DNA of 61,920 nt, counting the filler, from Blastocystis sp. subtype 4 (lineage: Eukaryota), in assembly GCF_000743755.1 (NCBI RefSeq). It is 13 parts of 13 records of this genome, joined end to end, with 100 filler letters (N's around TTAATTAATTAA, not from the genome) between each part and the next. Parts side by side here need not be neighbours in the genome. Positions count along the whole stretch, not along the records: positions 1 to 4,617 come from NW_014569045.1; 12 more parts are not named here. One strand, given 5' to 3'. The first letter of the stretch is position 1. Every line of letters starts with the position of its first letter. The position numbers were made by a program, and so were the translations under genes. A model generated the notes under the pieces. The model searched no databases and had not been told where the DNA came from. It saw only the letters and a program-made list of their open reading frames with translations. Below, piece by piece: positions 1,184 to 59,753 of this stretch.

Positions 1184-1490
1184 TTAAGCCAAAGGACTTG
1201 ATTCCATTTGACCATGAACAAGATTAGAATAGAAATCACAAGACTTCAATAACTCTTCATGAGTACCACTAGCAACAATTCCTCCTTCATGAACAACGAA
1301 GATGATATCACTATCAACAATCGTACTCAAACGATGAGCCACTGTGATAACAGTACAAGGATGTGTCTTTCTCCATGTATTCAAAGCAGTCAAGAACTTC
1401 TCTTGATTCTCACTATCGAGAGCACTTGTAGCCTCATCCAGCAGTAGAATTGAAGGCTTACGGAGAATCGCACGAGCCAACGCCTTCATT
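1184..1490 (-). pseudogene. C-terminal fragment of ABCB (MDR-type) transporter NBD
   Basis: ALARAILRKPSILLLDEATSALD, VAHRLSTI and GTHEELL motifs; LSGGQ and Walker A are missing upstream and there is no room for the rest of the gene; TGTTTGTT motif on minus strand at 1168-1175. Confidence 0.7.
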
Positions 1491-1842
1491 CTCTTCAGCA
1501 TGAAGTCTTGGTTATGTGATAAGAGGGTTGAAACCACAATTCAGTACACACAGCTATTGTATCTTGTACACTTCACAGCTCATCAGACCATCAATTGTTA
1601 TCCAGAATCCTGTTTTTCTTTTGATCATTATTACTGATTAGGATCACGGGGATCCTATTGTTACTACTCATTCAAGATTGTACTATTCTGTTGTTATTTC
1701 TTTTATCTACACTCTCATTTCACTTCATTTCTATCGTTATCTCAAAAGTGGTGGGAATCATCATTCTTCTCCTCCTCATTCTATATTGTGTTCAAAGGTA
1801 ATGAATTTGTTAGGCTAACTAATTGGGTCAGTTTTTTCTTTG

Positions 1843-4288: not shown

Positions 4289-4440
4289 AGTAGTAGTGTT
4301 TTGACGCATGTTACGTATTTTTATTATCCAGACAAACCGTCGCAAACATGGGCCTCCAACCCTGGGTAGCTATACACGCTTAACCCTGCCCATAAACAAG
4401 CTCGAAAAGGCAGACATTTTGATCATAATTTGGAAACATA
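4289..4440 (+). mobile_element. Polinton-like element terminus, copy 1
   Basis: Starts AGTAGTAGT; 4326-4377 is 52/52 identical to 53550-53601 and homologous to the 46837 and 48041 copies. Confidence 0.7.
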
Positions 4441-4617
4441 TTCAACCCATTTCAAGTCAAATCATGGGCAACAATGAAGCACATAATCTTTGTTCTTTGT
4501 TTTATCACAATGAAACATTTTTGAGATTAATAAACAGTATGAGATTTCCTAATGATATGATTCAACGATACATTTCAGAAATGATAAGTCACCTATTCAC
4601 AAACTATCAAACAACAC

Positions 4618-9142: not shown

Positions 9143-10122
9143 TGTGATAGAGAGTCTGATGTCAACAGTATGATTAAATGATATATTTAGTTATTTTCTG
9201 TTTATTTGGAAAGAAAACTAAATGAATAGTATAAAATGAAAGAAAAGAAGGAACTCATAATGAAAAAGATAGAGAAGTGATAGTATTAAATGAGGATGAA
9301 AATACATAATCGTTGCCGAAACAGACACATAACGTATAAATCTTTCGCCTTTTACTAAAGATTTCCGTGTGTATGTTTCATTAAAGGCACATTTCGTTGT
9401 TTCTTTGCCTGATATGATCAGGATTGTTGAATTGAATTGTTGATATTGGTTTTGTTATTGAATGATGATATTAGATACAGTTGACTTTGTCTTTGAGTAT
9501 GAGAAATTGAGTATTTGAAGAGTATCAAATGAAGAGTAACAGATTTGATTGATTGTACTATTCTTAACCACAAACAGGATTACATATCATTTCTTACCAA
9601 ACCTATTCATTCGTCATCATCATAATTAAGAAAGTGATTTGTTTTCATATTCTATAATTCGATTTCATTCAATAGTAAACAAATCACTTTCGTTTATCAC
9701 AATATCATATTCTATGTGAAATACTAATTGCTCTAAAACCGCGATTCTCATATTCTCCATTTGTGGTTCCATATTATTCCTTGTAAAAGAGGAAATAGAA
9801 GTGTAAGTGGAATGAATGGATGTTGTTTCGAGGATTAGTCAAATTCGGAAACCTCAAGCTACTATCGTGGCTGATGATGACCATTCTGAGGGAATGAGAA
9901 ACATCTTCATTATTTATTCTTGAATATATCTAATGAATGTCTAGGATCTAGTAGTAGGTTTAGTTTTGTTTGTTGTGTATTATCCTTTCTATCTTATTGG
10001 CACACATTCAATCAACGATTGTAGTACTATTAATGATATCCATTTGCAGAGGGGTACTTCGATCATGAACTGTTATTCCATGAAAGAGGACACTTAATTG
10101 TAAGTGTTATGATGTAAACTTT

Positions 10123-15576: not shown

Positions 15577-18500
15577 AGTATTCCAATCACTTGACACATC
15601 ACTCTGTATCACCTTCCAATCTGTGTATTCAATCTGGAAAGGGAAATATGTTGAGAACACAGTTGATACATAGATTGGTTTCGTTCCACTGTTCATTTCC
15701 ATGATATCCAACTCCATCTCTCCAACGTCAACAGTCAGAGTGTAACCAGATCCAGCAGACCAACCATCTCCATATGAATCCTTTCCTTCCAATGTGTAGA
15801 TACCATCATTCAAACAGAAATCAACATAGTAGTAGGCACTTGCTACAGGGAATGAAGATACCGAATCCAACACAGTTCCTGAGTTTCCTCTTCCTTCATA
15901 CAGCTTCCATGAATTCTCATTGGTATAAGAATCAGCTCTGAATCGAACAGTCATCAGACTCTTGCCATCGGTACACACTATAACTCCAACCGAGATAGTA
16001 GCAGTCACATCTCCTCCAGTCACTTTAGTACCAGTGATAGTGTAGGTCTGAGTAGCACTTTCAACAGCAGCAGTACCTGAGATCCAACCAGTGTGAGGAT
16101 CCAATACAATACCAGCAGGAAGGGCAGGATTGATTCTGAAGTTCATGTAACGATCCGCATTCTCAGGAATCACTTCAGACATCTCAATATCCTTGTACAC
16201 AGTAACTGAAGCATCATAAGTGAAGTTTGGAATATCAACCATCATGTTATCAGCAAACAGATCGAGAGATTGAATTCTCCAAGCACAAGCAGAAGAATCA
16301 CCAGAACCAAAGTTCTCAAACTTGAATTGATTGTAAGGAGTGTTATTAGCCAAATAGATCTTTCTCTTCTGACCAGCAATCGAATAAGTGAGATCAGTGA
16401 CTTCCTTCAGAAGAGTCCAGTCCTCAGTACCTGTATTGCGACCATAGAACTTGAATTGAGTTGCTTTCTGATTACTATATGTTGTTGAATAGTAGTTTTG
16501 AACCTGAATCGAACTGATCCATTCACGACGATTGTTTGATAGAGTCAAAGTCAGATAGTTGGTAGAACAGGATGAATAATAGAGGTTGGTTCCGTAATAC
16601 ATATCAATTGCACTGATTGCAGTTCCACTAATTCCAGACATACTTGCCGTAAGTTCCCACAGGTGAGATTCAGATTGTTCTGAAGGCATCAAACGAACCA
16701 TTGCATCGAAATAGGATGTGGTGTAACTGTCAGCAATAGCAACAATCGCAATAGCAATCGTGTTACTTCCAGATTGAAGGAATGTTTACTGTTGAAGTTG
16801 GAACCTGTTTGCCTGGAAGAGTCACAACATTGTATATCAAGTCAGTATATGAATTGTCAACAGTGGATGAAGTCGACAAATCTCCAATCACTCCATTTCT
16901 CCATGCTTCATTTCCATTCAAATACACAATCACTCCATATTCAATCCAGACACTTCATTCAATGAGGCAATGTTGAATGTCTTCTTATACAACTGAATAC
17001 GATTTGAAGAAGTAGGGAATGATCCTCTAGCAGCCTGTTGCCAACCTGATGTATCAGCATTATGCCAATTTGTAGGCACTTCACCCATCTTATAATACCA
17101 TTGTTCTGAATCCTTGATAGAAGGACGACGAACATACACATTGTGAACATTGCTTTGATAGTTATCATATCGACCTTTCACAACCATCTCTTGCTCACCA
17201 TCAGGTAACATATAGTACATTCGATAATACGAATTAGAAGCCCAGGCAGTAGAAAGAGAATAGAATGAAATATCGAATCGATCGACAGTGATACAGACAT
17301 AATGAACCCACTCAGTGTTGGCAGGATGTGAATGACTAGACTGTATCTGATATAGAATACTATCATCAGATGAGTCACGAATACGGAAGTACTCATACTG
17401 AGGACTTGTTGTGTAACTTCGAGTGATCTTATAGAGAGTTCCCGAACAGTCAGTGAAAGCAATACTGAGAGTGGTCTGAAGCTGCAATGATCCCATTGTT
17501 GACGTAATTTGATAAGGAGTAGATGTTAACAACTGATCAGTCATACCAGAGATGATACAAGTATCGGGATCAATACTGATACCGTTAGGAAGTGCGGGAG
17601 AGATTGAACAGCCATAGTAACCGAAATCAGTAGGAGCAATATGCACCTGCTCTCGATTACGGTAGAACGAATACTGAGTCTCAGGATATTCAATAGACGT
17701 TGGGAGAGGACGATTACAAACAAGGAACTGGAGTTCATAGAGAATGATATTTCCAGACTGCGATGATTGAGCAGTAAATCGAATAAAGCTAAACTTCGGT
17801 GGCAGGGTCACCATGTCATACTGTTTCCACTGACTGGATACGTAGCCACCAGCAGTATTGACTAGAATCGTTTGCCAATTCGAAGTCGATGACTGAGATC
17901 CCTCAATCGTAAATGAGACTGGAGCATTAGTTGGACTTGAATAAGGCCAGATACGATACGAATTAATGAGTGGTATGGAAGTGCCAGTAAACTCAAAAGT
18001 AACGGTTCCAGGAGGAGTAGTGAGAGTGGCTCCACTGTTTCTGGTCCAAGAACCAGCATTGACTCCATTGAGGAATCCAGTAGCTGTAATGGTGGTGCTA
18101 GTAGGAGCAACATAACAGTTATTCTGCGTACTCAAACCAGCAAACAATGACAAGAAACTGTTGAACTGAATAATCTCTTGATAATCAGAAGTAAGAGGAT
18201 GGATTTCAACAGCCAGAACACTTGACTGAGTGACTGGCTGAGCAGAACGAATAATACCATGGTAATCAAAAGAATTATATTCTCCAGATGCAAGAGTGGA
18301 CGAACTAGGTTCTCCATCAGGCATATTATCACGATACACTTCATTTCCATTGATATAAGCTACAACACCATACCGATACTTCATCTGAAGTTCAAACGCA
18401 GCCATGTCATTAATTCCCTCGAATGTCTTACGGAAGTACTGAGTTCCAGGAGCCGACTGAGCAGAGATACCAAGAGTAACACTTGTCCAATCACTATCTG

Positions 18501-19843: not shown

Positions 19844-20075
19844 TGAATGGATCAGTTCGATTCAGGTTCAAAACTACTATTCAACAACATACAGTAATCA
19901 GAAAGCAACTCAGTTCAAGTTCTATGGTCGCAATACAGGTACTGAGGACTGGACTCTTCTGAAGGAAGTCACTGGTCTCACTTATTCGATTGCTGGTCAG
20001 AAGAGAAAGATCTATTTGGCTAATAACACTCCTTACAATCAATTCAAGTTTGAGAACTTTGGTTCTGGTGATTCT
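19844..20075 (+). repeat. ~230-bp inverted near-identical copy of an internal part of the surface-protein gene
   Basis: Reverse complement of ~16295-16525 with only a few substitutions; no flanking coding context. Confidence 0.9.
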
Positions 20076-20395
20076 CGTACTTGTCACTATCTTACAGAGT
20101 AGAAGTTTCGATTATCATAACTATTATCACATCTTCATTTTTCAACCACTGATTTCTCGATCTCTAGAACCAGTCTTGTAACTAGATTGTAGTTCATATC
20201 GAACACTCATCTCCTTGTAGCGTTATCCAATAACTCACTATTATTTTTCCACTTATATCCATTATTCCATTCGCTATATATCTTATATCATTTGGGATCC
20301 CAATTCTTATAGGAGACGAAAAGAACCAAGAAATTTCCAGAAAACTTCTTGAAAAGCATAAAGATCAACCATTGTTCCCTCATACTAAATTTTAA

Positions 20396-38741: not shown

Positions 38742-39039
38742 GATGGAATCCATAGAATCCCATCTCCTCTTCAAACAATGTTTATGAATGGAATCTACAG
38801 ATTGGAAACAATAGAAATAATGGATTAGAAGAGTTCATCANNNNNNNNNNNNNNNNNNNNNNNNNNNNNNNNNNNNNNNNNNNNTTAATTAATTAANNNN
38901 NNNNNNNNNNNNNNNNNNNNNNNNNNNNNNNNNNNNNNNNGATGGAATCCATAGAATCCCATCTCCTCTTCAAACAATGTTTATGAATGGAATCTACAGA
39001 TTGGAAACAATAGAAATAATGGATTAGAAGAGTTCATCA
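38742..39039. repeat. 99-bp exact overlap across contig spacer (assembly k-mer overlap)
   Basis: 38742-38840 is identical to 38941-39039. Confidence 0.9.
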
Positions 39040-44280: not shown

Positions 44281-46577
44281 AGAAGGAAATCAGAGATAAC
44301 TTTATCATCACTATTTGTGAATGCTTCAGTGAATAGTGGAGACAGTGAAGGATAATCACCACTAGAATATGATTATGATGATATCAAGTATCCCATTCCA
44401 TTCAATGAGCTTGTTGGAAAGAAAGAGAATCGTTATGTTGATTTCAATGTGACGAGAGAAGGTTTTCCTTCATTCCTCAACTTTGGAGTTGTTCAGCCAT
44501 CTCTCAATCCTGATAATGAATATGTAATTGTGGCAGGTGCTTCACAGAATCATATTATATCTTTAGTAAATCTACTGTATTCCACATTGTTAGCTAATCC
44601 TTATTCTCCTCTTGTCATTGTGGATTATGGCATCTATGAAGCTGGGTTGATGTATCTACTATCCAATATTACTCAGATTCACTTACTTCGGAAACAAATT
44701 GGAAGTGAATCACCTATCTATTATCGCAAATTCAACTTTGATCATTTTCCAGAATGGTGTAGAATCACTGAACCTCTCTCTGTAGGAGGTTATTCATGGA
44801 AGATTATTACCATTTTCGATGTCATCACTGAATACAAAGGAGTAGTGTTATGGGCAGATGCAGGAAGTATCGTTGGAAACATTGATAAGGATATTCGAAG
44901 TGCCAGAATGAATGGTTTCTATTCCAATTCTGCTGGACACAGTATTCGGAAATGGACTCATCCTGGTACATATCAGTATCTTGAGGAGATGAAGTGGATA
45001 TCTGTTGTGAATTCTACTAAAGACAAATGGTGTTGTAATGTTGGATATCTGATTATTGACTACAGGAATAGAACAGTGATGGAGAATATCATATATCCAA
45101 CAGTCAAGTGTTCTTTGACTAAGAAATGTATCACTCCTATTGGTAGTCATCGAAGGAATCACAGACAAGATCAATCAGTTATCTCCATTTTCGTTCAGTC
45201 CTTGGGCATTCATCAATCATGTGATCCTCAACATCCTTCATCAGTTCAGTCTCATAAGGATGATGAGAAGCATAACTATCGAATTGATATAGATGGAAGA
45301 TTCCTTCAGACATTGAAATCCAAGTACAACGTCACAATCACCAATGCTTTATATTCAACTGTGATTGGTAATGACTATTCATCTTCAAATGGTTCACTCA
45401 ATACTGTTTCTTCTGATTCATTGAAATCGAATGGTGAAATAATCCTTCCTACAGTATCACAATCTTCATTCAAACAGTCTTCAACAGAAGAGGTCTATTA
45501 TGATTGGGGTGATTCTGTTAGTCAGTATTCAATGATCTCCTGATGTCTAGATTACAATCAGAAATGTTTGGATATTCTTAAGGTGATCAAGGGTCCAAAT
45601 GACTATAAGATCTTGCATGATGGATATCCAGGAGGACTGGGACACAAGTATTGGTCTTTCCATTTAACTCTCACTTATGCTCTATTACTCAAACGTCATT
45701 TTTATAGTAGAATTGATTCAATGAATTCATTCTAGTTTATCTTCCTCTGAACTTCTGGAGGAATACTGCCAATTGTATAACAACTGATCAATCTCTTTTG
45801 ATCTCTAATAGATCCAGTCTATTCACTGGATATAGGATAGTCAGTAAAAGTACTTGTCTCAAAGCTCGTTCAATAACCTCAGTATTTGGATCTGAAGATG
45901 TGGTGACTGTTGATTGTCATATCTCAGATGGAATTCTTGGCTCCAAGTCAAGTGTACTCACATTACAACAGAATGGAATCATTTCTCCTTCAGATTCATA
46001 TTGGAATTACAGACGATATGTCCATCGGATTCTTTTCAATCCATCCATTGAACTTCAAAATGTGATTCAAAACAACAAACGATTATTGTTCACTCGGAAG
46101 TATGTTGTTGGAGTTCAAGTTCGAATGGGAGGATGTCTGGCTGATTACCATGAGAGGTCTCAAATGATGACAATGGCTCAATTGAGATCATATCCCAATA
46201 CTATTGTGAAAGTGATGAGAAAATGGAATTATGATTCAAACAACACAGTGATCTATTTGTCTACTGATTCTTCTTATGCTGAGAGGTATATTCGACAGAA
46301 GCTGGGACCAAATTATGAAATTGGAGTTGCCAAGACATTCAAACGATCCCATTCTCGGAATCTGGGTAATGATGAACCAGTGAAGAATGCTCTTGTTGAT
46401 TTGTATCTGTTAGCAGATTCAGATGTATTGATAATATGTAAAAATAGTGCATTTGGTCGAGCTGCTTTGTCAATGACACGAGCTCGACGTACTCTAGTAT
46501 ACTATGTTACTCATTCCCTTCTTACCAATTGGAATGGTACTAATGGCCTATGTGAGGTAGAAAGAGATGTCATATAG
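44281..46577 (+). pseudogene. DUF1647-like domain fused to GT23/NodZ-like fucosyltransferase domain; 5' end disrupted
   Basis: YSWK, VLWADAG, NHRQDQS; after short introns GGLGH, VGVQVRMG, IYLSTDS, ALVDLYLLADSD..SAFG; in-frame TAA at 44353-44355 and no start codon. Confidence 0.6.
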
Positions 46578-46836: not shown

Positions 46837-46980
46837 AGTAGTCAGGTTTGACATATATCACGTACAAATTGGAAGTAGACAAACCATCACCAACATCGCC
46901 TCAATCCTGGATAGCTATACAGGTTTACTTTCGGAATAAGATCAAAATGGAAGACTCACTTTACCCTTTCGAGACATATT
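46837..46980 (+). mobile_element. Polinton-like element terminus, copy 2
   Basis: AGTAGT start, AGACAAACC..AACAT..CCTGGATAGCTATACA core, GATCAAAATGGAAG shared with the 48041 copy. Confidence 0.7.
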
Positions 46981-47057
46981 GTCGGGTGATTAACAACGAG
47001 AATTGTGTCGTTAAAGTAAATGTACTACTCAATAATCATTCAAGGTTAACCATTGAA

Positions 47058-47560
47058 TGGATTATTCACTTGGGACAATCGTTATCGTTTTAATAATCCA
47101 TTCATTACAATGATGATAGTACTATTCACACCTTCTTCAGATGCTCTACTCTCAAACCAATACTGTATCTAATGGTAAAGGAGAATCTGTTGTGTTTGAT
47201 AAAGGATATTATACTCTACCTCACATTATTGCTATGCTCAGTCAAGTGCAATACATATCATCTCAATATCCAATGCTGTTACCAGTTATGATTGTATTCA
47301 TATTGATTCCAATTGTTCAGTTGATTGCTCACAAGCACCAGATTTCATCGATATTCTGGGTCTACAGAAACAGTATATGAACAAGGAAGTAATAGGGGAA
47401 CAAACATCATTGATATCACTAGAAAGAGACAAGTGATTCAAGTTCTTCAATTGTAAACATCTGATCTTAAGATTGTCAATCAGAACAACAATCTGATTAC
47501 TACAATATCACTGATGATCCTAGTCAGATGCTTGAATACTGCTGAAGATGAAACATTCGA
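47058..47560 (+). pseudogene. Degenerate minor capsid (penton)-like gene A
   Basis: Intronless and frameshifted; VFDKGYYTL..IIAML, APDF.DILGL, NIIDITR..QVIQV, NNLITT follow the GxY / LGF / D..I.V order of Polinton-type pentons. Confidence 0.5.
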
Positions 47561-47576: not shown

Positions 47577-47747
47577 ATGAACAATAGTCTGCCATTGAGT
47601 CAATTAGTGATAAGTGCTGTTATACCAGCTGGTGAATCTCATACAGTGATAGATATAGATAAGAAATCATTTCCAGATGATATCGATTTGACTATCAATA
47701 GTGTTGTAGTGAAGATTGATACTACATCTTTGTACAATGTGAAGACA
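47577..47747 (+). CDS. 5' part of minor capsid (penton)-like gene B
   Basis: ATG 47577; 47649-47747 identical to 57435-57533, where the penton-like motifs continue. Confidence 0.55.
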
Positions 47748-47959: not shown

Positions 47960-48040
47960 TCTTTGTTGTGGAATCATCGAAACTGATAGTATAACAATCA
48001 CCTGACACATCACTCTGTATCACCTACCAATCTCTGTATT
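47960..48040 (-). pseudogene. Remnant of Ig-like surface protein gene cut by element insertion
   Basis: 47999-48040 aligns to 15588-15629 and stops exactly at AGTAGT 48041. Confidence 0.7.
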
Positions 48041-48501
48041 AGTAGTAAGGTTTTGATGTATGCCACATTCAAATTTGAGGCATACAAGCTGTCATGAACA
48101 TGGGCCTTCCAATCCTGGGTAGCTATACAAGGTTACTTTCGAATTAAATGATCAAAATGGAAGGCTCCCTTACTATTTCGAACCAAGTTGTTGGATGACT
48201 AATAAAAGAAATGTGTTGATATCTTCAGACCAATCTGAGTTCAAATTTGGTTTCGTTTTATTCACTATTACTAGATGAGAATTCCATCACCTTCTTCCAT
48301 AAACGTTCCAAACGATTTGAGAAATCAATATCAAGGGAATCCATTCATAATGTTAGCCATTTCTCTCAGACTCTCCAATGTTTCAGATCATTTGGGTGAT
48401 AACACAAGATAAGATTGTTGTTCAATCCTTGAGTAATACAAATAATGTAAGAATGATTGGATTAAGGGTGATACAATTACTAATAACAAATCTACACCAT
48501 T

Positions 48502-49382
48502 GTGAATGAACTATCATACATTGCTTATGATGATGTCAGTAGTACAAATGCTGCTACACTTGGTCGTCCTTATGATGGTAAACTCTTCTATAATGTGTTG
48601 AAGTTAGTTCAGAAGTCAGGATCTACTGTTGCTTATTCAACTATCAATGTCAACTTTTCAGATATCTTTGAAGGATGTTCACAGGAACGATTCATCAATC
48701 TAACGCAAATGGATGCTCAGATCATTCCTACCAATGATGATGCATATTTCTACATTAGTAATGGTAAGATCAAGACAATGTCATCTCCTACTACAAATCC
48801 TGTAGATACTACATCTTTGATAGTTGTATTCTGTGGTATCATAGTTACAAGACTGCAAATGAAGATGCATTTGATCCTGAAGATACGAAACTGGTGAAGA
48901 ATCAGATTATGACGAAAACATTCAAGATTCCTGCAAATCAAGGATTCATTGATGATCGAGTCCTTGTGAACTTCCCAATTAAGATGATGTTTATGGTATT
49001 CACAGATGATAATGGTGATTTCAGCAGTTTGAAGGATGTACGATTTAAGCGTATTGCAATGAATATTGCTGGTGAACAGAAACGTATTCTGAATGTTGAT
49101 AATGGTAATAATCCTGATGGAATTGATCATACATTCTTTGAATGGGTTGATTATCTATGCAATTCTCGTAGTGATGAATATGATACTTTGTTGACCTATA
49201 AGACATGGCGAGATCAATTCCGTGTATTTGCATTCCCTATTGCAGAATGGTTCCCACAAAGAGCTCAAAATCAGTTGCAGTTTGAGATTGAATTGGATAA
49301 TTCTGATGATAATGCTCCTAACAAGACTGAAATATTGCAGATGCATTTGATAATGATTCGTGCTAATCAGGTTCAAGCATAG
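48502..49382 (+). pseudogene. Double-jelly-roll major capsid protein-like, frameshift near 48765
   Basis: INVNFSDIFEGCSQERFI, FDSCILWY, PIKMMFMVF, FKRIAMNIAG, LLTYKTWRDQFRVFAFPI, LQFEIEL resemble the motif series of Polinton/adintovirus-type MCPs. Confidence 0.65.
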
Positions 49383-49472: not shown

Positions 49473-49960
49473 ATGCGAATGATAGAAATAGACAATTTCA
49501 CAAAGTCAGATTTCCAACCATACAATGATGATTATGTATACATTCCTATCAAACCAAAAGTTCATCAACAACATTCCAGAAAGATAATGGATAAGATGAT
49601 TCAGAAGTACTTTAACAAAGTTGAAGAAACAGCTCTTAATCCAACTCGTGTATTTGGTAACAAATGGCAATCTTTGAAAGCCACTTATGATACTTATATG
49701 GGTCTAACACCCAATGAACGTCGAAGAGTGGATGTTTCAAATATGCGTGGATATCAATTAGCAAGAAACTCTATTCATTTGAAGATAATTGTGTATACAA
49801 TGTAACAGTTGCTGATAAGTTCAACAAGATTGTTGTTGTTTCAAAAGATCACTTATTGTCTGACACTGAGAAACGAGCTGTGTTTGATAATCCATTTCAG
49901 TTTGAGCCTATATCTCCTTATAGAATTACTTGGCCTACTTCCACCATTCGAGATATGAAA
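49473..49960 (+). pseudogene. Unknown element ORF, frameshifted
   Basis: Intronless 110-aa ORF continuing in another frame (EDNCVYNVTVADKFNKIVVVSKDH). Confidence 0.4.
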
Positions 49961-50003
49961 GATTATTGAAATCAACAAGAGTGTTGATAAGCTCAGTGAT
50001 ACT

Positions 50004-52128
50004 ATGAATACCTTTACCACCAATATGAATACTGTTATGGATAACATATCTTCAACTACTTCTGCTCTAGTAAATCAAAATGCAATGATATACAATGACT
50101 TTAAACAACAAAGACAACAACAAGAACAACAAGAGCAAAAGATATTGAATAGTAATAGATTGTATTATAATAGAGATGGATCTTATGTTAGAAGCAAAGC
50201 CCTTTATGTTCATCGAGGTAGTAAAAACTACAATACATTAATAGAACATGGTTGGAAAGAAAATGGTGATGGAACAATGGTACACATTCGTTTCATTGAA
50301 GAACCTCAACCTGTGGTTCAGAATGTTATACAACAACAAATGGATATTCAACCCCTTATTATGCAAGTGAATAATGTTGTTGCTACACTATCCACTTTTG
50401 TAGATCAAATGACGAGTCTTGATCTTGCAACGAATATTGCAGATATCCATTCTATTCTTGGAGATATAGCAACAGTAGTACGAGGAATACCTAAGAATCA
50501 ATTAGTAATGAATAATGCAATGATTAAGTCAATTACAGATTTACAGAAACAAATAACAACCATAATTGATAAACAAGTACCTGCTTTAACAGATTTGAAT
50601 AATGCTTTCAATACAAGTAGTATTATGAATAGAGAGAATCGATTTGATGAACAAATAGGAAGATTGATTAATGCTCAGAATGATTTGTTCAAGAAGAGTG
50701 AGGATACAATAGCGGCTTTACAACAAAGAATTGATCCAGGTAGAGAAGTAGCAATTGCAAATGTTGTTCCTGGAGTAGATCCAGAAGTTCTTAAAGGGAT
50801 TAATTCGATGGAATCTTTCTTCAAGTTCTCAAATCCCAATTCCTTACTTACTTAACAAAGATGTTGGATGCAAATAATGCCCTAATAGAAAAGGTGATTC
50901 AAAATCAAAACAATCAAAGTGAAGCTTTGACAACGATATCAAGAACAAATTATCATGATCTAGTAGAACAACTACAGAAACAATCGTACAATCATTTCAA
51001 TCCACTTCTAGAAGATTTGAGTCAACAATCAACAAATACTCAAGAAATGTTAACAAATCTACAAAGAGACAAATCATTTGTTAATGGATATGCAAATTGA
51101 TAATCAGAATATGCATAAGGATAACCAGAATATGATGTTAGATATGTATGATGATAACAGAAACATGTTAGGAGTTATCAATCAGAATGTTGTAAATGGT
51201 AATCAACAAAGAGATGCTCAAATGCAAATGATTAATAGTCTACAAGATCAACAATCGTATTTGAATTGGATGATGGAAAATGGACTGACTCGAATTGAAA
51301 ATAGGGCTGATCAGTTCTATCAGGATTATCTTGAATTGCAGAGGAAGATTCCTCAAATTCAGTTTACTAACAATAACATACCATTATTGGATGGTACATC
51401 AGTTAGTCAATTACTATTAACAAATGATAATTCTACTATTGCTCCTGCAATTGTTGATAAAGTGAATACAATTGTACCAGTAATTGTGGAATATGATAAG
51501 TTCAATAATGCAAATATGGGTTATATTAATGAAAGGGATGTGATTCGTGATGACTTCTTATCATTCCTCAATGTTCTAGCAAAGAATCGTGATAACATAG
51601 TACTTATGCAGAAATGTCGTTCTAAAGGTCCAAGATTCTTATTCTCCATATTTCGTTTAAGACACAATTTTCCAAAGATATCAGAGTTCTTTGTTCGTCT
51701 TGCAAATGGAGTAATAACTACAGAAGAAGAAATGGATAGCTACTTTGATTATTTCGAGAATAACATATTAAATCATTATAAAGAGAAAGCTGATATAAAC
51801 CAAATGATTGATAGTGTAATCAATAGTGTGTTGTATTCAAACAAGGTACAATCAAGATTACAACCTATATCTCAGGGGTCTGAACAGACACAACCTCAGG
51901 ATTCAACACAATCTATAGTACAATCAAGTATGATATCTAGACAATATATCTCAGGGGTCTGAACAGACACAACCTCAGGACTCAACACAATCTATAGTAC
52001 AATCAAGTATGATATCTAGACAAAGAAGACCTTTCATAGGTACAAGATTACTAACACAAAAACCTGAACAGACAGATTATAGGATTATACATACAAATAA
52101 GCAATAATCTATGAATAGAAAGAACTGA
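50004..52128 (+). pseudogene. Long Gln/Asn-rich coiled-coil element ORF broken by frameshifts
   Basis: Consecutive ORFs 50004-50855, 50861-51100 and 51078-51962 with the same Q/N/M-rich composition and no introns. Confidence 0.55.
51866..52023 (+). repeat. 79-bp tandem duplication (2 copies, 1 mismatch)
   Basis: TATATCTCAGGGGTCTGAACAG...GATATCTAGACAA at 51866-51944 and 51945-52023. Confidence 0.92.
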
Positions 52129-52330
52129 AAGTAATTTCACTTTGTTTTTCTTATTAATAAACTACACAACATGAGTATTCCATTTACAGTTGATATATCT
52201 GCATTCTATGGTGAACCCGACTTTCGTGAANNNNNNNNNNNNNNNNNNNNNNNNNNNNNNNNNNNNNNNNNNNNTTAATTAATTAANNNNNNNNNNNNNN
52301 NNNNNNNNNNNNNNNNNNNNNNNNNNNNNN

Positions 52331-53240: not shown

Positions 53241-53515
53241 TTTCTAGGTGTAATATAATAATCATAACATACCTAACTACTGAACGTGCATGATGGTTAT
53301 TTGTTCTTTGTATTACAACACCTCAATTCTCTCTTTTAGAAAGCAACACTTTATTACTTAGTCTATAACTGATTTCAATGGTATTATACTCACTTTTGGT
53401 TAGTTCAGTTTTGAAGGGAGCTGTGATACCAGAGGAACTATTATGAGACCTAAGTCTATTGAGTTTGGGAGGCGCTGCATACCTACCGAACTCAATAGAC
53501 TCACACCGTAGTAAC

Positions 53516-53601
53516 AGTAGTAATCTGATGCATGATACGTATTCTTAACATCCAGACAAACCGTCGCAAACATGGGCCTCCAACCCTGGGTAGCTATACA
53601 C
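53516..53601 (+). mobile_element. Polinton-like element terminus, copy 4
   Basis: AGTAGT start; colinear with 4292-4377, last 52 bp identical. Confidence 0.7.
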
Positions 53602-55645
53602 TGTAAACACTATAAACACTACTTAGATGCCCTAGAGGGCACTTTACGTCCATACCGTGAGGCCTCGGACTAGTTCCCGAGTAATTCTAATATCCAGTGA
53701 TTGCTTGACAGCTCATGAACCCAACCACTAGCTATTCAGGAGAATAGAGTGGTGACATCCAGCTGGGAAATCACCGATGACATCGTGGAAACATAATGAT
53801 GTCATCATCACCTTAGAGAACACAGGATCCCATAGGTGATAGAATAAGATGAATACCACAACCAAATCACAAGAGAAAGAGGTTCATACATGACAGACGA
53901 ACAAGAAAAGACAGGACAGAGCTTGAGAAGATCATGAAATCTCCTCAGGAAAATAAGAACGACAATACTTGCAGAAGGTGTTCTGTATCCTTGTCGACTG
54001 GCAACAAGCAACAGGAAGCAGTAATCCAACTTGAAAAACGAAATAGAAAAACTCCAAGAGAACAACCGAAAGGTTAAAAACTCACAGAGAAAACTCAGCA
54101 AAACAAGAAAAAGCCCGAAACGAAGGATCGAGAACCAATCCTATAAAGCTAAAGTAAGAAGTAAGGGTCAAAGACCGACCCTATGGACCAACACAATGAA
54201 CCAAGGACCAATACCACAACGAATACAAACACTAAGGACCAAGGTTCAAGAATGAGAAGCCAACACTACCGGTCAAAGACCAGAAATGAAGACCTTATCC
54301 GATATCTATCAAGACAAGTAAGAAGTCAATTCAATCACTATGGCAAGGGATGAGGACCAGGGACCAAAGCGAAGACTAAGGACGATGGATCAACCCTATG
54401 AACCAAATACCAAGATTTAAGGCCAAAACTCAAGAAACAAGGGTTACGAGTTAAAACCCAAAACCAACACTAAGATTCGAGAAACTAAGGACGAATGACC
54501 AGAACCATTGAGAATAACAATGTAATGAGCCAACTTGAAAAGTAAAGAGCCAATGTGAAGAGCTAAGGCTGGAGGGAAGCAAAGAGCCATTGATCGATAA
54601 TACAATCACGAAGCAAGGTCAAGAATGATTGGAAGTAGTGCGTTTAAGAGGCAAAGACAGGAACCACGTCGAAACAATGGAAGGCTTAAGGCAAAGACCA
54701 AGAAGCATTGAGAGCAGCAACAATAGGAGCCACGACCAAGGACATAAGTGAGGGGGGTGAAGAAACAAGGTCTAAGGACCAAGAACTAGGAACGAGATGA
54801 ATGACAATCAAGGGTGAGCGGTATAGACGAGGATGGTTGGGGATACTTAGTAGTATGGCTGGAGACGAAGAGAAGAGTTATGGAGACTAGCTGTAAGAAA
54901 AGTAGAGTCGAAGAATGAGCCGAAATTAGAGGGAGTAGGTAGCCGAGTTTTCAGAAATGAGGAGAGTTATCCCGATTTAGCCAGGCGAGTGTCTAAAGTG
55001 AAGAAGGAGTGTGGATGACGAGAACTGAAAACTGTACTGAAACCTGTAGCAAAGGAATCAAGGAGTTTCACTAGGTCCAGGACGAAGTGCCGAGTTCACG
55101 AAATGACCATTGATACGAAGCTTGTTGACTGCCAGTATTAGCAATTTGCAGTAATATGGGATTCCAGATAGGAGAAACTGCGAAGCCAAAGATCAAGAGA
55201 GATACCGATAAAGAGTTGAAATATGTTGATGATTGGATGTGGCAGAGAGAATAGAGAATAATATGAAGGAGAATAGAGTGGATGTTTGTTATAGAAGAAA
55301 AGGCTGGAGCTTTGGTATAGGAAGTATAAGACATACGAAAGAGAATAATAGTAAAGCATATGATAGGATAGTTGCAAGAAATAAGAAAAAGAATGAGTAT
55401 AAGAGTGGAGTAGGTTAGTAGATCCAGTGAAACATAATGATAATAAGTAGGGTATAAGGTGTAAGTAGATTATAAGGTAGAGTACAAGTTGAATACAGTA
55501 AACTTTACAGGTCACGTGATTGATGTGGCTGTAGACATAGTGTTATGTATGGCTTTAGGTTTGTGAATGTTGGAATGAAGTATAGGAATTGAAGATTGGA
55601 TGAATGGATGGATGGAAACTGAATCATGTGGTATTGGTTAGAATA

Positions 55646-56144
55646 TGAATGAAATATGAAAGAATGAATGAAAAGTGTTTTGAAGAAAGTGTGAGAAGAC
55701 ATGTACAATTTGAATTATCGATTTTGGTAAGTTGGTTTGATTTGACTAGTTGTAAGATGTATAATTGAATGGCATTATAGAAAGGATGAAGTTCGAAGTA
55801 TTAGTGGAGATCAGGTTGTGAGTAAGATTTGTAGTATTAGAATAGCATATTTAGCATGAATGATGATGGCGGTTTGAATGAAGTACAGTAATTGAAGATT
55901 GGAGTAGTAGATGAGAGATGAAACCTGTAGTGTTGTTAGAATTGGAATTGAATGTAATGATTGTAATAGAGATAGTATTAGTATGGTGTTTGTTATGAAT
56001 AGAAGTGTATTAGAGTGTTAGAGTGAGTGAGGATGTTTAGATAGTATGATTCGAATAGAAATGTGAATGTGAATGAAATATGAAAGAATAAAAGAAAGTT
56101 GTGTTTTGAAGAAAGTGTGAGAAGACATGTACAATTTGAATTAT
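55646..56144 (+). repeat. Direct repeat pair, 44-bp identical core
   Basis: GTGTTTTGAAGAAAGTGTGAGAAGACATGTACAATTTGAATTAT at 55675-55718 and 56101-56144, with a shared TGAATGAAATATGAAAGAAT upstream. Confidence 0.88.
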
Positions 56145-56758
56145 GGAGAGGCCTGAGGCCGTGTATGCTCTGCGGAGGGCGCGGCGCAAGCGCCGCACCT
56201 CCTTGAGCTGAAGCAATAAATGTGTACAAAAATGGTTAAGTAATCAGTCAAATGGTGTGAACAAAGTAAAACAAACTTTCTAACACTAAAGACAGTGCAG
56301 TAAACAGGGTGACGACCAGACCTCCAAATTCTGCGACAATCGGCAAGCCCTAGATGCGGCGCCGCAACAGGGTCCCGATAATTGCCGATTGCGCCATATT
56401 TGCCGCAGAATGCGCAATAATGCCGCAAATATGGCGCAATTACCTAATGTTTCTGTTTATCAGTTAGTGATTGCTTACAAACAACTTTCTTTAACTCAAT
56501 TGTATTTAGGAATCAATGTCGTTCCTTTTTCTTTAAGATAATCATATTCACTCAAGTAATGTCTCAGGAGAGCCAGTCTTCCACTTTTCTCACAACAAGT
56601 GGAATTCTGCTTAACTCGCAGTAAGCATCGAAGTGTATCTGTAGAAAGGCAGCTTCTTNNNNNNNNNNNNNNNNNNNNNNNNNNNNNNNNNNNNNNNNNN
56701 NNTTAATTAATTAANNNNNNNNNNNNNNNNNNNNNNNNNNNNNNNNNNNNNNNNNNNN

Positions 56759-57339: not shown

Positions 57340-57434
57340 TTACTCTTGTTATTAGTTGTATCCTGTTTGTTATGTTATCATACTTGTAAATGACTAGTAC
57401 CAATAACATCTACAACCTATTAATGCATCCTTGT

Positions 57435-57875
57435 ATAGATATAGATAAGAAATCATTTCCAGATGATATCGATTTGACTATCAATAGTGTTGTAGTGAAG
57501 ATTGATACTACATCTTTGTACAATGTGAAGACAACGAATACAGTAGTAGCTCGAAATGATTCAGGACCAAAGAATATCGTTGTTGAAGCAGGATACTGTG
57601 ATCAAGAATCATTAGAAGAGATGTTTGGTTCATATCTCACATTCACAGAAGATGGATATGCACATCCTTCTGGTCCTGCTTATGATTTAGTATTTCAACA
57701 AGTACCTGACTTGAGTCGAATATTGGGATTTGATAAGATTCAGGCAAGTGGTGTGAAAGGGAAAGAACCAGTAGATCTATCAAATGGATTGAACTGTATT
57801 CGAATCTACAGTAATCTGGTAAAGCAGATGATATCATTTGAAACAAGTCCATTAGTGGATTGTATGATCTATTCA
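57435..57875 (+). mobile_element. Isolated fragment of penton-like gene B between host genes
   Basis: IVVEAGYC, LSRILGF, PVDLSNGLNCIRIYSNLVKQ..PLV motif order; first 99 bp identical to 47649-47747. Confidence 0.65.
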
Positions 57876-57950
57876 ATTGAACAATGTGTGTTCGTTTGTT
57901 ATTCAGTATGTACTAGTTCCATTCAATTAGCAGTACTTCAAACAAACACA

Positions 57951-59753
57951 CTAGGAACGATTCTTGACTTCTCTAATAACTTGTCCTTTATCTCTAGTTC
58001 GGTCGTATGTATTTTGTAAGAGAATCAGCATCTTAATCATTATCAACTTATCAAATTTACTCAAACTGTTCAGTTCTATCACATTAATGAATGATTCATT
58101 CAACTGAATACCTTCATCCGTGAGTGATGGAATGTCTAATTCATATTCAAGCATCAATCATCACTCTCCAATTGTACTTTGCTCATGTACATGAAGCCAC
58201 TCCTATCTCCCTTGAGTAGAGTAAGAGAAGGGAGATCTAATAAATCAATCATCATTATCATTTATGCTCTTCATTATCAATTTATTTCTACTTCTATCGT
58301 AATCATCACCTTGAACGGAAGTTGATCCAAGAGTGATTGTTTCAAGTTGATTCAAATCTCATTCATCAATCATTCAATCATTCATACTCTCAAATACCAC
58401 TGAATGACACATACCAAAGGTGGACATATCTAATTGAATGGATTTAAGTAAAGGGAGATTCTTCAATTCAAATGAATCATACCAACGGAATGAATAATCC
58501 CCAAAGTGGATTTGTCTCAATTGATCACAATTCCTTATAACGCATTTGCTCCCTTCTCTTCTGCCATTCAGATAGAAACTATTCTTACCAATCTTCACAC
58601 TCCTCAGTGTATTTAACCCTTCCAGTACAAATTGACTTACTTCTTTAAAACAATCATTTCCAATTTCAACTCTCTCAATTCCATTAAGCCAAGTTGCACT
58701 AAACGAATTCAGATCATTCCCATAATCATTTTTATAACGTAGAACACCATACTCTCCTTTTATCCATCTCCCACTTCTAACCAATTCATCATTCTCATTG
58801 TACTCTTCTCCGTTTCCATCCCTCATTCCATCCTTCCATTCTCCAATATACACTAGATTCAGGTCTTTGAATTCACTTCCCTTCCCTTCTCTCTTCCCAT
58901 TCTTCCAATCACCATAATACAAGGCTCTCTTTCCATCACTCTCATACTCTGTTCCACTCTTTGCTCGAACAAATCCTTTTATAATATCTCCTTCAAATCC
59001 TCCTTCATATACTCTCACTCCATTCTCATCATACTCAATCATGTTACATGATGGATAGGGATTATTATAACGATTACCAAAACCAGTATTAGGGTTACCA
59101 AAACCAGTATTGTTAGGTAAATTCAAACCATATCCTGCCACTCCACTACCAGTAAACTCTCGAATAAGTTTCTTCTTCACTCCATTCTCATATAAACATT
59201 CTCTCTTCAAGCGTCCTGATTCGCCCTCAAAACATCTTCCATTCTTTCTCCACCTATCATCATATTCACTCACACTCAACAGTTCTCCTCCATTTACGTT
59301 GGCCTCTGAATAGAATCCATCCATTCCTTCCTTTTTTTTCAGTTCTCTGTATCGCTTTCCATTTTGATAGAATCCCCTCCATGTCACATTTCGAGAACTG
59401 TCATACTCTTCAAAAACACTGCATTCTTTCCCATGTTCCAATTCACCTCTAAGGATAGTTCGACCATTCTGTTCCTTCTTCAATACTATCCCTTCTGCCA
59501 AGTCATTTACAAATTTCAATTTCATAAACAATGTTCCATTAGCATATAGAATCAATCCATCTCCTTCTTTCTTTCCATCTTTCATATTTACTAACATTTC
59601 ATAATTAGAAGACTGATAGGATATATGGACGGTTGCTTTTCCTGTTTTTGATCCATCATCATTCTCAATCTCGACACTGCTAACCTGGAAGTCAGCTAGA
59701 AAGGAATCCTGTGGAAAACCTAGTCGTTCATTTGGAATATTTCCAGTAAACAT
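57951..59753 (-). CDS. MORN-repeat + LRR protein without TM (multi-exon, possible terminal frameshift)
   Basis: Paralog of 1843-4217: YxGxWKxGxRxGxG repeats, IGNDCF/IGKNSF LRRs, DLPSL and DIPSL exons; 21-bp NTGFGNP duplication at 59074-59111. Confidence 0.8.

Follow-up and report, generated by a model that had tools for sequence, protein, structure and literature searches.

The four AGTAGT-type repeats found in a 61,920-nucleotide stretch of Blastocystis sp. subtype 4 DNA (the window, in which N44-TTAATTAATTAA-N44 linkers connect 13 contigs, each 4.3-5.6 kb long) are the outer ends of terminal inverted repeats (TIRs) of about 223 bp. We put at roughly 96% the probability that they belong to integrated Blastocystis MELD virus, an element of the Polinton/Maverick type that is likely to be ~23 kb long, and whose AGTAGT tips are likely to be both the start of protein-primed replication and the ends joined by its integrase. 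Both the element and its end motif are already known. What is added here is a map of the terminus and junction evidence of integration in Blastocystis; the deposited record or published supplements may already describe the termini. Junctions at 24 flanks, along with several copies in the assembly of a cultured strain, tie the virus to Blastocystis chromosomes, and with the terminus mapped, strains can be typed by insertion site and excision and virion production put to the test.

Repeat copies in the window

The original prediction of four homologous copies was borne out: a 21-nt core pattern matched the window four times, against no match in 100 shuffles, and over a core of ~88 bp the four copies are 66-89% identical in pairwise comparison. 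The predicted starts of copy 2 (46837) and copy 3 (48041) are correct, but copy 1 begins at 4289, with AGTAGTAGT, and not at 4292. The internal spacing of copy 4 in the alignment puts its start at 53513, with AACAGTAGT, or at 53510, and the AGTAGT at 53516 is therefore not its true tip. Copies 1 and 4 do share an exact run of 52 bp, as had been claimed, and are 89% identical overall, while the further block common to copies 2 and 3 amounts to ~180 bp at 75% identity. The two subfamilies that this pattern had suggested survive in part. Copies 2 and 3 are a diverged TIR variant, present too in the metagenome loci L003 and L022, but they represent opposite end types, copy 2 the capsid side and copy 3 the polymerase side. 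A repeat length of 90-140 bp had been given, which is too short: the repeat extends for ~223 bp in intact copies and from 4289 to 4475 in copy 1. Sequence 5' of AGTAGT does not align, in agreement with the prediction, mean pairwise identity among 22 flank groups of the family being 0.22-0.44 over the 20 nt upstream; copies 2 and 3 have seven of the nine nucleotides immediately upstream of the tip in common, a match that we take as chance. Since the four copies sit on four separate contigs of a concatenated assembly, their common orientation and spacing are uninformative.

Copy 1 (4289..4475, plus strand), aligned with loci L006, L010, L013, L018 and L035, has a TIR that lacks 36 bp because of an internal deletion after 4387. 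It is followed by the polymerase-side interior (4476..4617, plus strand), which runs to the contig end at 4617. Window positions 4388-4617 are 97-98% identical to L006, L010 and L014, and apart from the 36-bp deletion copy 1 hardly differs from intact ones (97-98% identity) up to the end of its contig, 329 bp in. A step in depth at 4289 was seen in three of four runs.

Window copies 2-4 are decayed, each being deleted, frameshifted or interrupted by a second repeat. Copy 2 (46837..47546, plus strand) comprises a diverged TIR and the decayed 5' part of a 1019-aa capsid-side gene; its positions 47017-47546 are 79% identical to L013 and L035, and tblastn aligns it with the 1019-aa protein at 50-65%, in two frames. 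A NodZ/O-fucosyltransferase-like ORF (45798-46577) lies directly 5' of copy 2. Copy 3 (48041..48402, plus strand) is a diverged TIR with a remnant of the polymerase-side interior, of which 48266-48402 is 71% identical to the L006 interior. After its end come a large internal deletion, a broken capsid gene and a frameshifted 830-aa gene; copy 3 joins a polymerase-side end to capsid-side genes, oriented as inverted ends would predict. The broken major capsid protein gene (48502..49379, plus strand) is without its first 128 codons and retains only residues 129-425, in two frames, the two pieces being 90% and 100% identical to a protein of 425 aa (P0191); the 100% identity covers residues 238-425. 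The decayed interior continues at 49587..52230 (plus strand, from tblastn) with the frameshifted 830-aa gene and the start of a 338-aa gene, and is 97% identical to L013 in nucleotides, with eight gap openings. Because this interior is 97% identical to L013 and the copy 3 TIR only ~75% identical to copy 1, copy 3 may be a mosaic. The decayed 830-aa gene also carries a 79-bp tandem duplication (51866-52023).

Copy 4 (53513..53601, plus strand) is a TIR fragment with the variant tip AACAGTAGT, which a second, unrelated repeat starting with TG (53602..54249, plus strand) cuts off after 89 bp. This second repeat, which we presume to be LTR-like, is 90-95% identical to sequence in loci L004, L015, L022, L026 and L027, where it begins at the same base in a different context. 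A search of 53602-56658 for coding frames found none; pieces of the 3' part of the second repeat in this interval match L009, L029 and L032. In L004, L015, L022, L026 and L027, the virus is inserted ~0.75-0.85 kb inside another copy of the second repeat, and nesting of virus and second repeat is mutual. A further diverged remnant, at 57390..58019 (plus strand), is related to the 227-aa gene of the virus (32% identity to the L013 protein, E 3e-14), and its positions 57435-57533 equal the last 99 bp of the copy 2 contig. For this remnant, a cluster with 18% Adeno_Penton_B appeared at rank 11 in the Atlas, which is a lead only.

Structure of the terminal inverted repeats

In the alignment of loci, the same ~223 bp precede polymerase-side and capsid-side ends, and inward of them the loci split into two end types. 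The polymerase-side loci L006, L010 and L014 lead into open frames for a 1602-aa polymerase and a 339-aa integrase, and are more than 99.5% identical over 10 kb while lying at three different sites. The capsid-side loci L013, L018 and L035 lead into genes for proteins of 1019, 227, 445, 338 and 830 aa. Independent runs branch at the same base (window 4475, L006 2684), and at window 4475 one such run turns into the capsid-side end. No single record or locus carries the two tips of an intact copy of this family; the evidence for their inverted arrangement and for a length of ~23 kb is pieced together from several records, the length from the sizes of contigs with 10 kb read from each end.

The direct continuation of the repeat into viral genes bears on two other readings of the four copies. 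If the repeat were a host gene for a non-coding RNA, or a promoter of the snRNA type, a conserved block of ~90 bp in intergenic DNA would be accounted for, as would the TACTTT..GATCA that follows copies 2 and 3, which to us resembles U3 boxes. However, no copy has an Rfam match up to E 10, the TIR folds worse than its shuffles (z +0.85, with DNA parameters), and no repeat copy stands upstream of the window's U5 gene. Neither upstream homology nor a stable fold was found, and linkage to viral genes refutes this reading, to which we give practically no credence. It is also very improbable that the copies mark the ends of cut-and-paste DNA transposons, or of a MITE family, with no connection to the viral genes, a reading at odds with the direct link between the repeat and the genes for polymerase and capsid. 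In its favour, a stretch of ~0.96 kb (L003:176-1137) carries a terminus and a degraded inverted copy at opposite ends, but what lies between them is a decayed part of the viral 1019-aa gene, and no separate transposase was found beside any terminus. This stretch is possibly a non-autonomous mini-element of the virus.

L009:5333-5750 and L035:2315-2900 have the same host flank and TIR variant with opposite interiors, one leading into the polymerase side and the other into the capsid side, through either inversion of the interior by recombination of one TIR with the other or an assembly path that crossed the repeat. A 142-bp insert after the L035 TIR is present too in run X4. At L006:1686-2461 the insertion lies ~45 bp upstream of a frame for the C-terminal part of an ABC transporter, possibly splitting a host gene. 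At window 1184-1540 there is a fragment of a related ABC ATPase.

Insertion junctions

A metagenome scan with a 19-nt core returned 33 loci, the named ones being human-gut assemblies, and the terminus is present in 31 of them; the other two (L021, L033) were dropped as chance matches. Both matches from a pattern scan of IMG/VR were likewise due to chance. A profile search gave 35 full termini, 31 in loci and four in the window, leaving out L013, which begins inside the repeat, and the degraded inverted copy in L003. Two of the loci are not independent of the window, L008 and L031 being letter-identical to copies 4 and 2, respectively. The 35 termini fall into 24 unrelated flank groups; as the flanks of L025 and L029 are related and L018 has only ~5 nt of genomic flank, independent insertions may number slightly fewer than 24.

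The sharp 5' boundary that had been predicted is present in this larger set. Identity falls to background directly upstream of the tip, and over the first 8 nt inside it is 0.69-1.0, as calculated from 22 of the 24 flank groups with the two that do not start with AG excluded, which forces positions 1-2 to 1.0. The tip reads AGTAGT in 17 of 24 flank groups, and ten begin with AGTAGTAGT. Six have one base changed in the first six, and copy 4 begins AACAGT. Conservation of the inner CCTGGRTAGCTATAC block is inflated, since that block served as a search pattern.

Uninterrupted paralogous host sequence aligns with three flanks as far as the junction (L016 with L009 at 97%, copy 3 with window 15577-15629 at 91%, and L011 with L028 at 80%); these are insertions with a sharp end. 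In copy 3 the junction is at 48040/48041. Flank pairing yielded no target-site duplication (TSD) of 5-8 bp among 24 flanks and 276 pairs, none of which is known to derive from one insertion, and host-gene continuity likewise gave nothing at 5-8 bp. Four of the 276 pairs match over 4 bp, about the chance expectation; one of these, L005/L012, has a common TIR variant and flanks that are not demonstrably contiguous.

Gene content of the element

Several features expected of a Polinton or Maverick (for which see the general account in the text of bioRxiv 10.1101/2023.08.22.554363) are found here: a protein-primed family-B polymerase (pPolB), an rve integrase, a TIR within 100-1500 bp, a short tip motif, (AGT)2 or (AG)3, and a double jelly-roll major capsid protein (MCP). 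Such elements also have a 5-8-bp TSD, a total size of 13-25 kb, an A32/FtsK-like packaging ATPase, a minor capsid protein and a maturation protease, and for the last three there are candidates here. The integrase in L006 matches rve (PF00665, E 5.8e-11), as does that of a relative, L036 (E 3.8e-16). Exonuclease and family-B polymerase motifs are present in the 1602-aa ORF, which has 132 homologues, many with PF03175; 25 clusters among the homologues lie at 44-100% identity, its own cluster holding more than 1,000 sequences. The L006 polymerase itself gave no Pfam PolB match and no PDB match, and a relative that is 56% identical (P0014) matches PF03175 at E 5.8e-16. These results agree with the prediction that the copies form the ends of an element that encodes an integrase and replicates by protein priming, with a TIR at both end types beside a family-B polymerase and an rve integrase.

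Among the homologues found, the capsid protein has no sequence relatives outside a clade of 57-100% identity. An AlphaFold2 model of P0191, built from a 39-sequence alignment (pLDDT 79), is a predicted double jelly-roll: in Foldseek its best structural match is the MCP of the mavirus virophage (E 7.3e-11), followed by PRD1 P3 and STIV, though sequence identity to the mavirus protein is only 7-8% and the TM-score is ~0.5. Mavirus, which integrates in a stramenopile, likewise encodes a pPolB and an rve integrase.

Other assignments are more tentative. The packaging ATPase candidate is the 445-aa ORF, which has a Walker A-like motif; Pox_A32 was detected in only two of 25 of its homologues (best E 2.4e-4), and a PDB sequence search with it gave no match. 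The product of the 227-aa gene is likely to be a minor capsid protein, and from their motifs we would take both the 227-aa and the 1019-aa proteins as minor capsid (penton) candidates. A 137-aa ORF with His and Cys motifs is presumably a candidate for an adenovirus-like maturation protease; it had no match in Pfam or PDB, and its single-sequence fold reached a pLDDT of 38.6. The 338-aa protein (L013:6464-7480) is rich in GGA repeats, which look to us like the sites at which adenovirus-type proteases cleave core proteins.

Relation to Blastocystis MELD virus and other elements

The 227-aa protein of L013 falls in the same 90% cluster as DAC81484.1, 'Blastocystis MELD virus'; this is a comparison of one protein. 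The text of Starrett 2021 (PMC8502044) presents that virus as having an adintovirus-like PolB and an integrase with divergent virion proteins; it has the same host and the same combination of PolB, integrase and divergent virion genes as the element described here. Its passages on the virus carry no description of termini, copy number or insertion sites, which is where our analysis differs; its Fig. 5 or the deposited record may show repeats, and one supplement gave no match for Blastocystis. In the literature searched, with subscription journals mostly outside its scope, the virus is described in Starrett 2021 only. A preprint names it in a tree, the main text of a long-read Blastocystis genome paper (PMC10690189) mentions neither integrase nor MELD, and a 2026 review, in its passage on the subject, calls the source of Blastocystis virus sequences unclear (PMC12835684).

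The viral proteins cluster with proteins of the cultured strain BT1 on contigs of 0.6-2.05 Mb. The BT1 polymerase (WA171_005202), integrase (_005203) and 227-aa gene (_005209) have neighbouring tags and are listed with a 979,865-bp contig, and there are at least five integrase accessions and four identical ATPase entries, on contigs of up to 2.05 Mb. The BT1 assembly holds several copies of the virus.

Vertebrate Mavericks/Polintons, as treated in the text of Barreat and Katzourakis 2021 (PMC8097293), likewise have (AGT)2 ends, TIRs, pPolB, an rve integrase and a capsid module, mostly in decayed copies. There the commonest end is (AGT)2//(ACT)2, in accordance with the prediction of a protein-primed origin at the AGT repeat. 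The same text gives 6-bp TSDs; among the 24 Blastocystis flanks, no two of them known to come from one insertion, there was no 5-8-bp pair. The host here is also a protist, and beyond the 25 polymerase clusters there is a gap, down to at most ~31-32% identity, before the next group, proteins with PF03175 and PF02945, some of them from animal genomes.

Scans of IMG/VR proteins with the integrase and a capsid alignment found no relatives. A relative does occur on a 23,175-bp contig, G001:C142 (L036, L038, L039), with 72% capsid identity. It has the same gene set in a different order, with all frames open, and an extra KilA-N gene, and its 85-bp contig ends are inverted at 100% identity, in a sequence unrelated to the ~223-bp TIR. 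The bacterial metagenome bin in which it is placed probably reflects misbinning.

Activity of the element

Whether these copies still move is a separate matter from what they are. There is close to an even chance that this true Polinton survives in its host only as a fixed or decaying transposon that neither forms virions nor moves at present, a reading that bears on activity alone and does not conflict with the main identification. The broken state of window copies 2-4 favours it, as do the missing relatives among IMG/VR viral contigs and the recurrence of the same sites in independent samples (L006/L019, L014/L020/L028, and runs X1, X3 and X4), from which it follows that some copies are old. 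Set against this are the near-identity of L006, L010 and L014 over 10 kb with their polymerase and integrase frames open, the common occurrence of full-length capsid genes, and at least 11 flank groups that were seen in one metagenome locus only. That the Polinton of subtype 4 is still active, forms virions, keeps inserting at new sites and is part of a wide gut radiation is a tentative reading, which we consider rather doubtful. If it is true, the commonest protist of the human gut would have a DNA virus that is inducible from cultured BT1 and may correspond to virus-like particles observed decades ago by electron microscopy.

Summed contig depth in run X1 was at least 10-fold higher inside the element than in the copy 1 flank, a figure that gives no copy number. 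The runs compared are assembled contigs, which cannot show the ends of molecules. RNA run X17 gave patchy contigs that we do not count as transcription.

Model of replication and integration

By analogy with other protein-primed systems, we suggest that excised or incoming linear DNA of the MELD virus would be copied from both ends by its family-B polymerase, priming on a terminal protein. With a 3-nt AGT repeat at the tip, initiation could take place one unit in, and a jump back would then restore the tip; in adenovirus (CATCAT) and phi29, terminal repeats take part in jump-back initiation. The presence of two versus three AGT units among tips fits such a mechanism, without proving it. The rve integrase would join the ends of the linear DNA to host DNA with a short target duplication, and the capsid module would package the genome. 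The inner blocks (TGACG, AGACAAA repeats and CCTGGRTAGCTATAC) may bind replication, packaging or transcription proteins. Slide-back priming and a role for the inner core, both put forward in the original prediction, are what we infer from these features.

Other features of the window

Eukaryotic genes in the window include SF3B1, Sec61/SecY, RPS13, IMPDH, a kinase, several genes with He_PIG domains and a U5 snRNA gene (9312-9423; Rfam, E 1.9e-11). Three of four host ORFs that were looked up cluster with Blastocystis proteins, two with those of subtype 4 and strain BT1 and the conserved Sec61 with those of strains NMH and DL; the remaining ORF is absent from the collection. About 40 bp at a contig end (10150-10190) resemble, we presume, large-subunit rRNA. 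Exact 99-bp overlaps occur at contig ends (38742-38840 with 38941-39039, and 47649-47747 with 57435-57533), and are typical of assembly-graph joins. Finally, one contig carries a 241-bp inverted duplication at 97.5% identity (16285-16525 and 19844-20084), around a He_PIG-family region.
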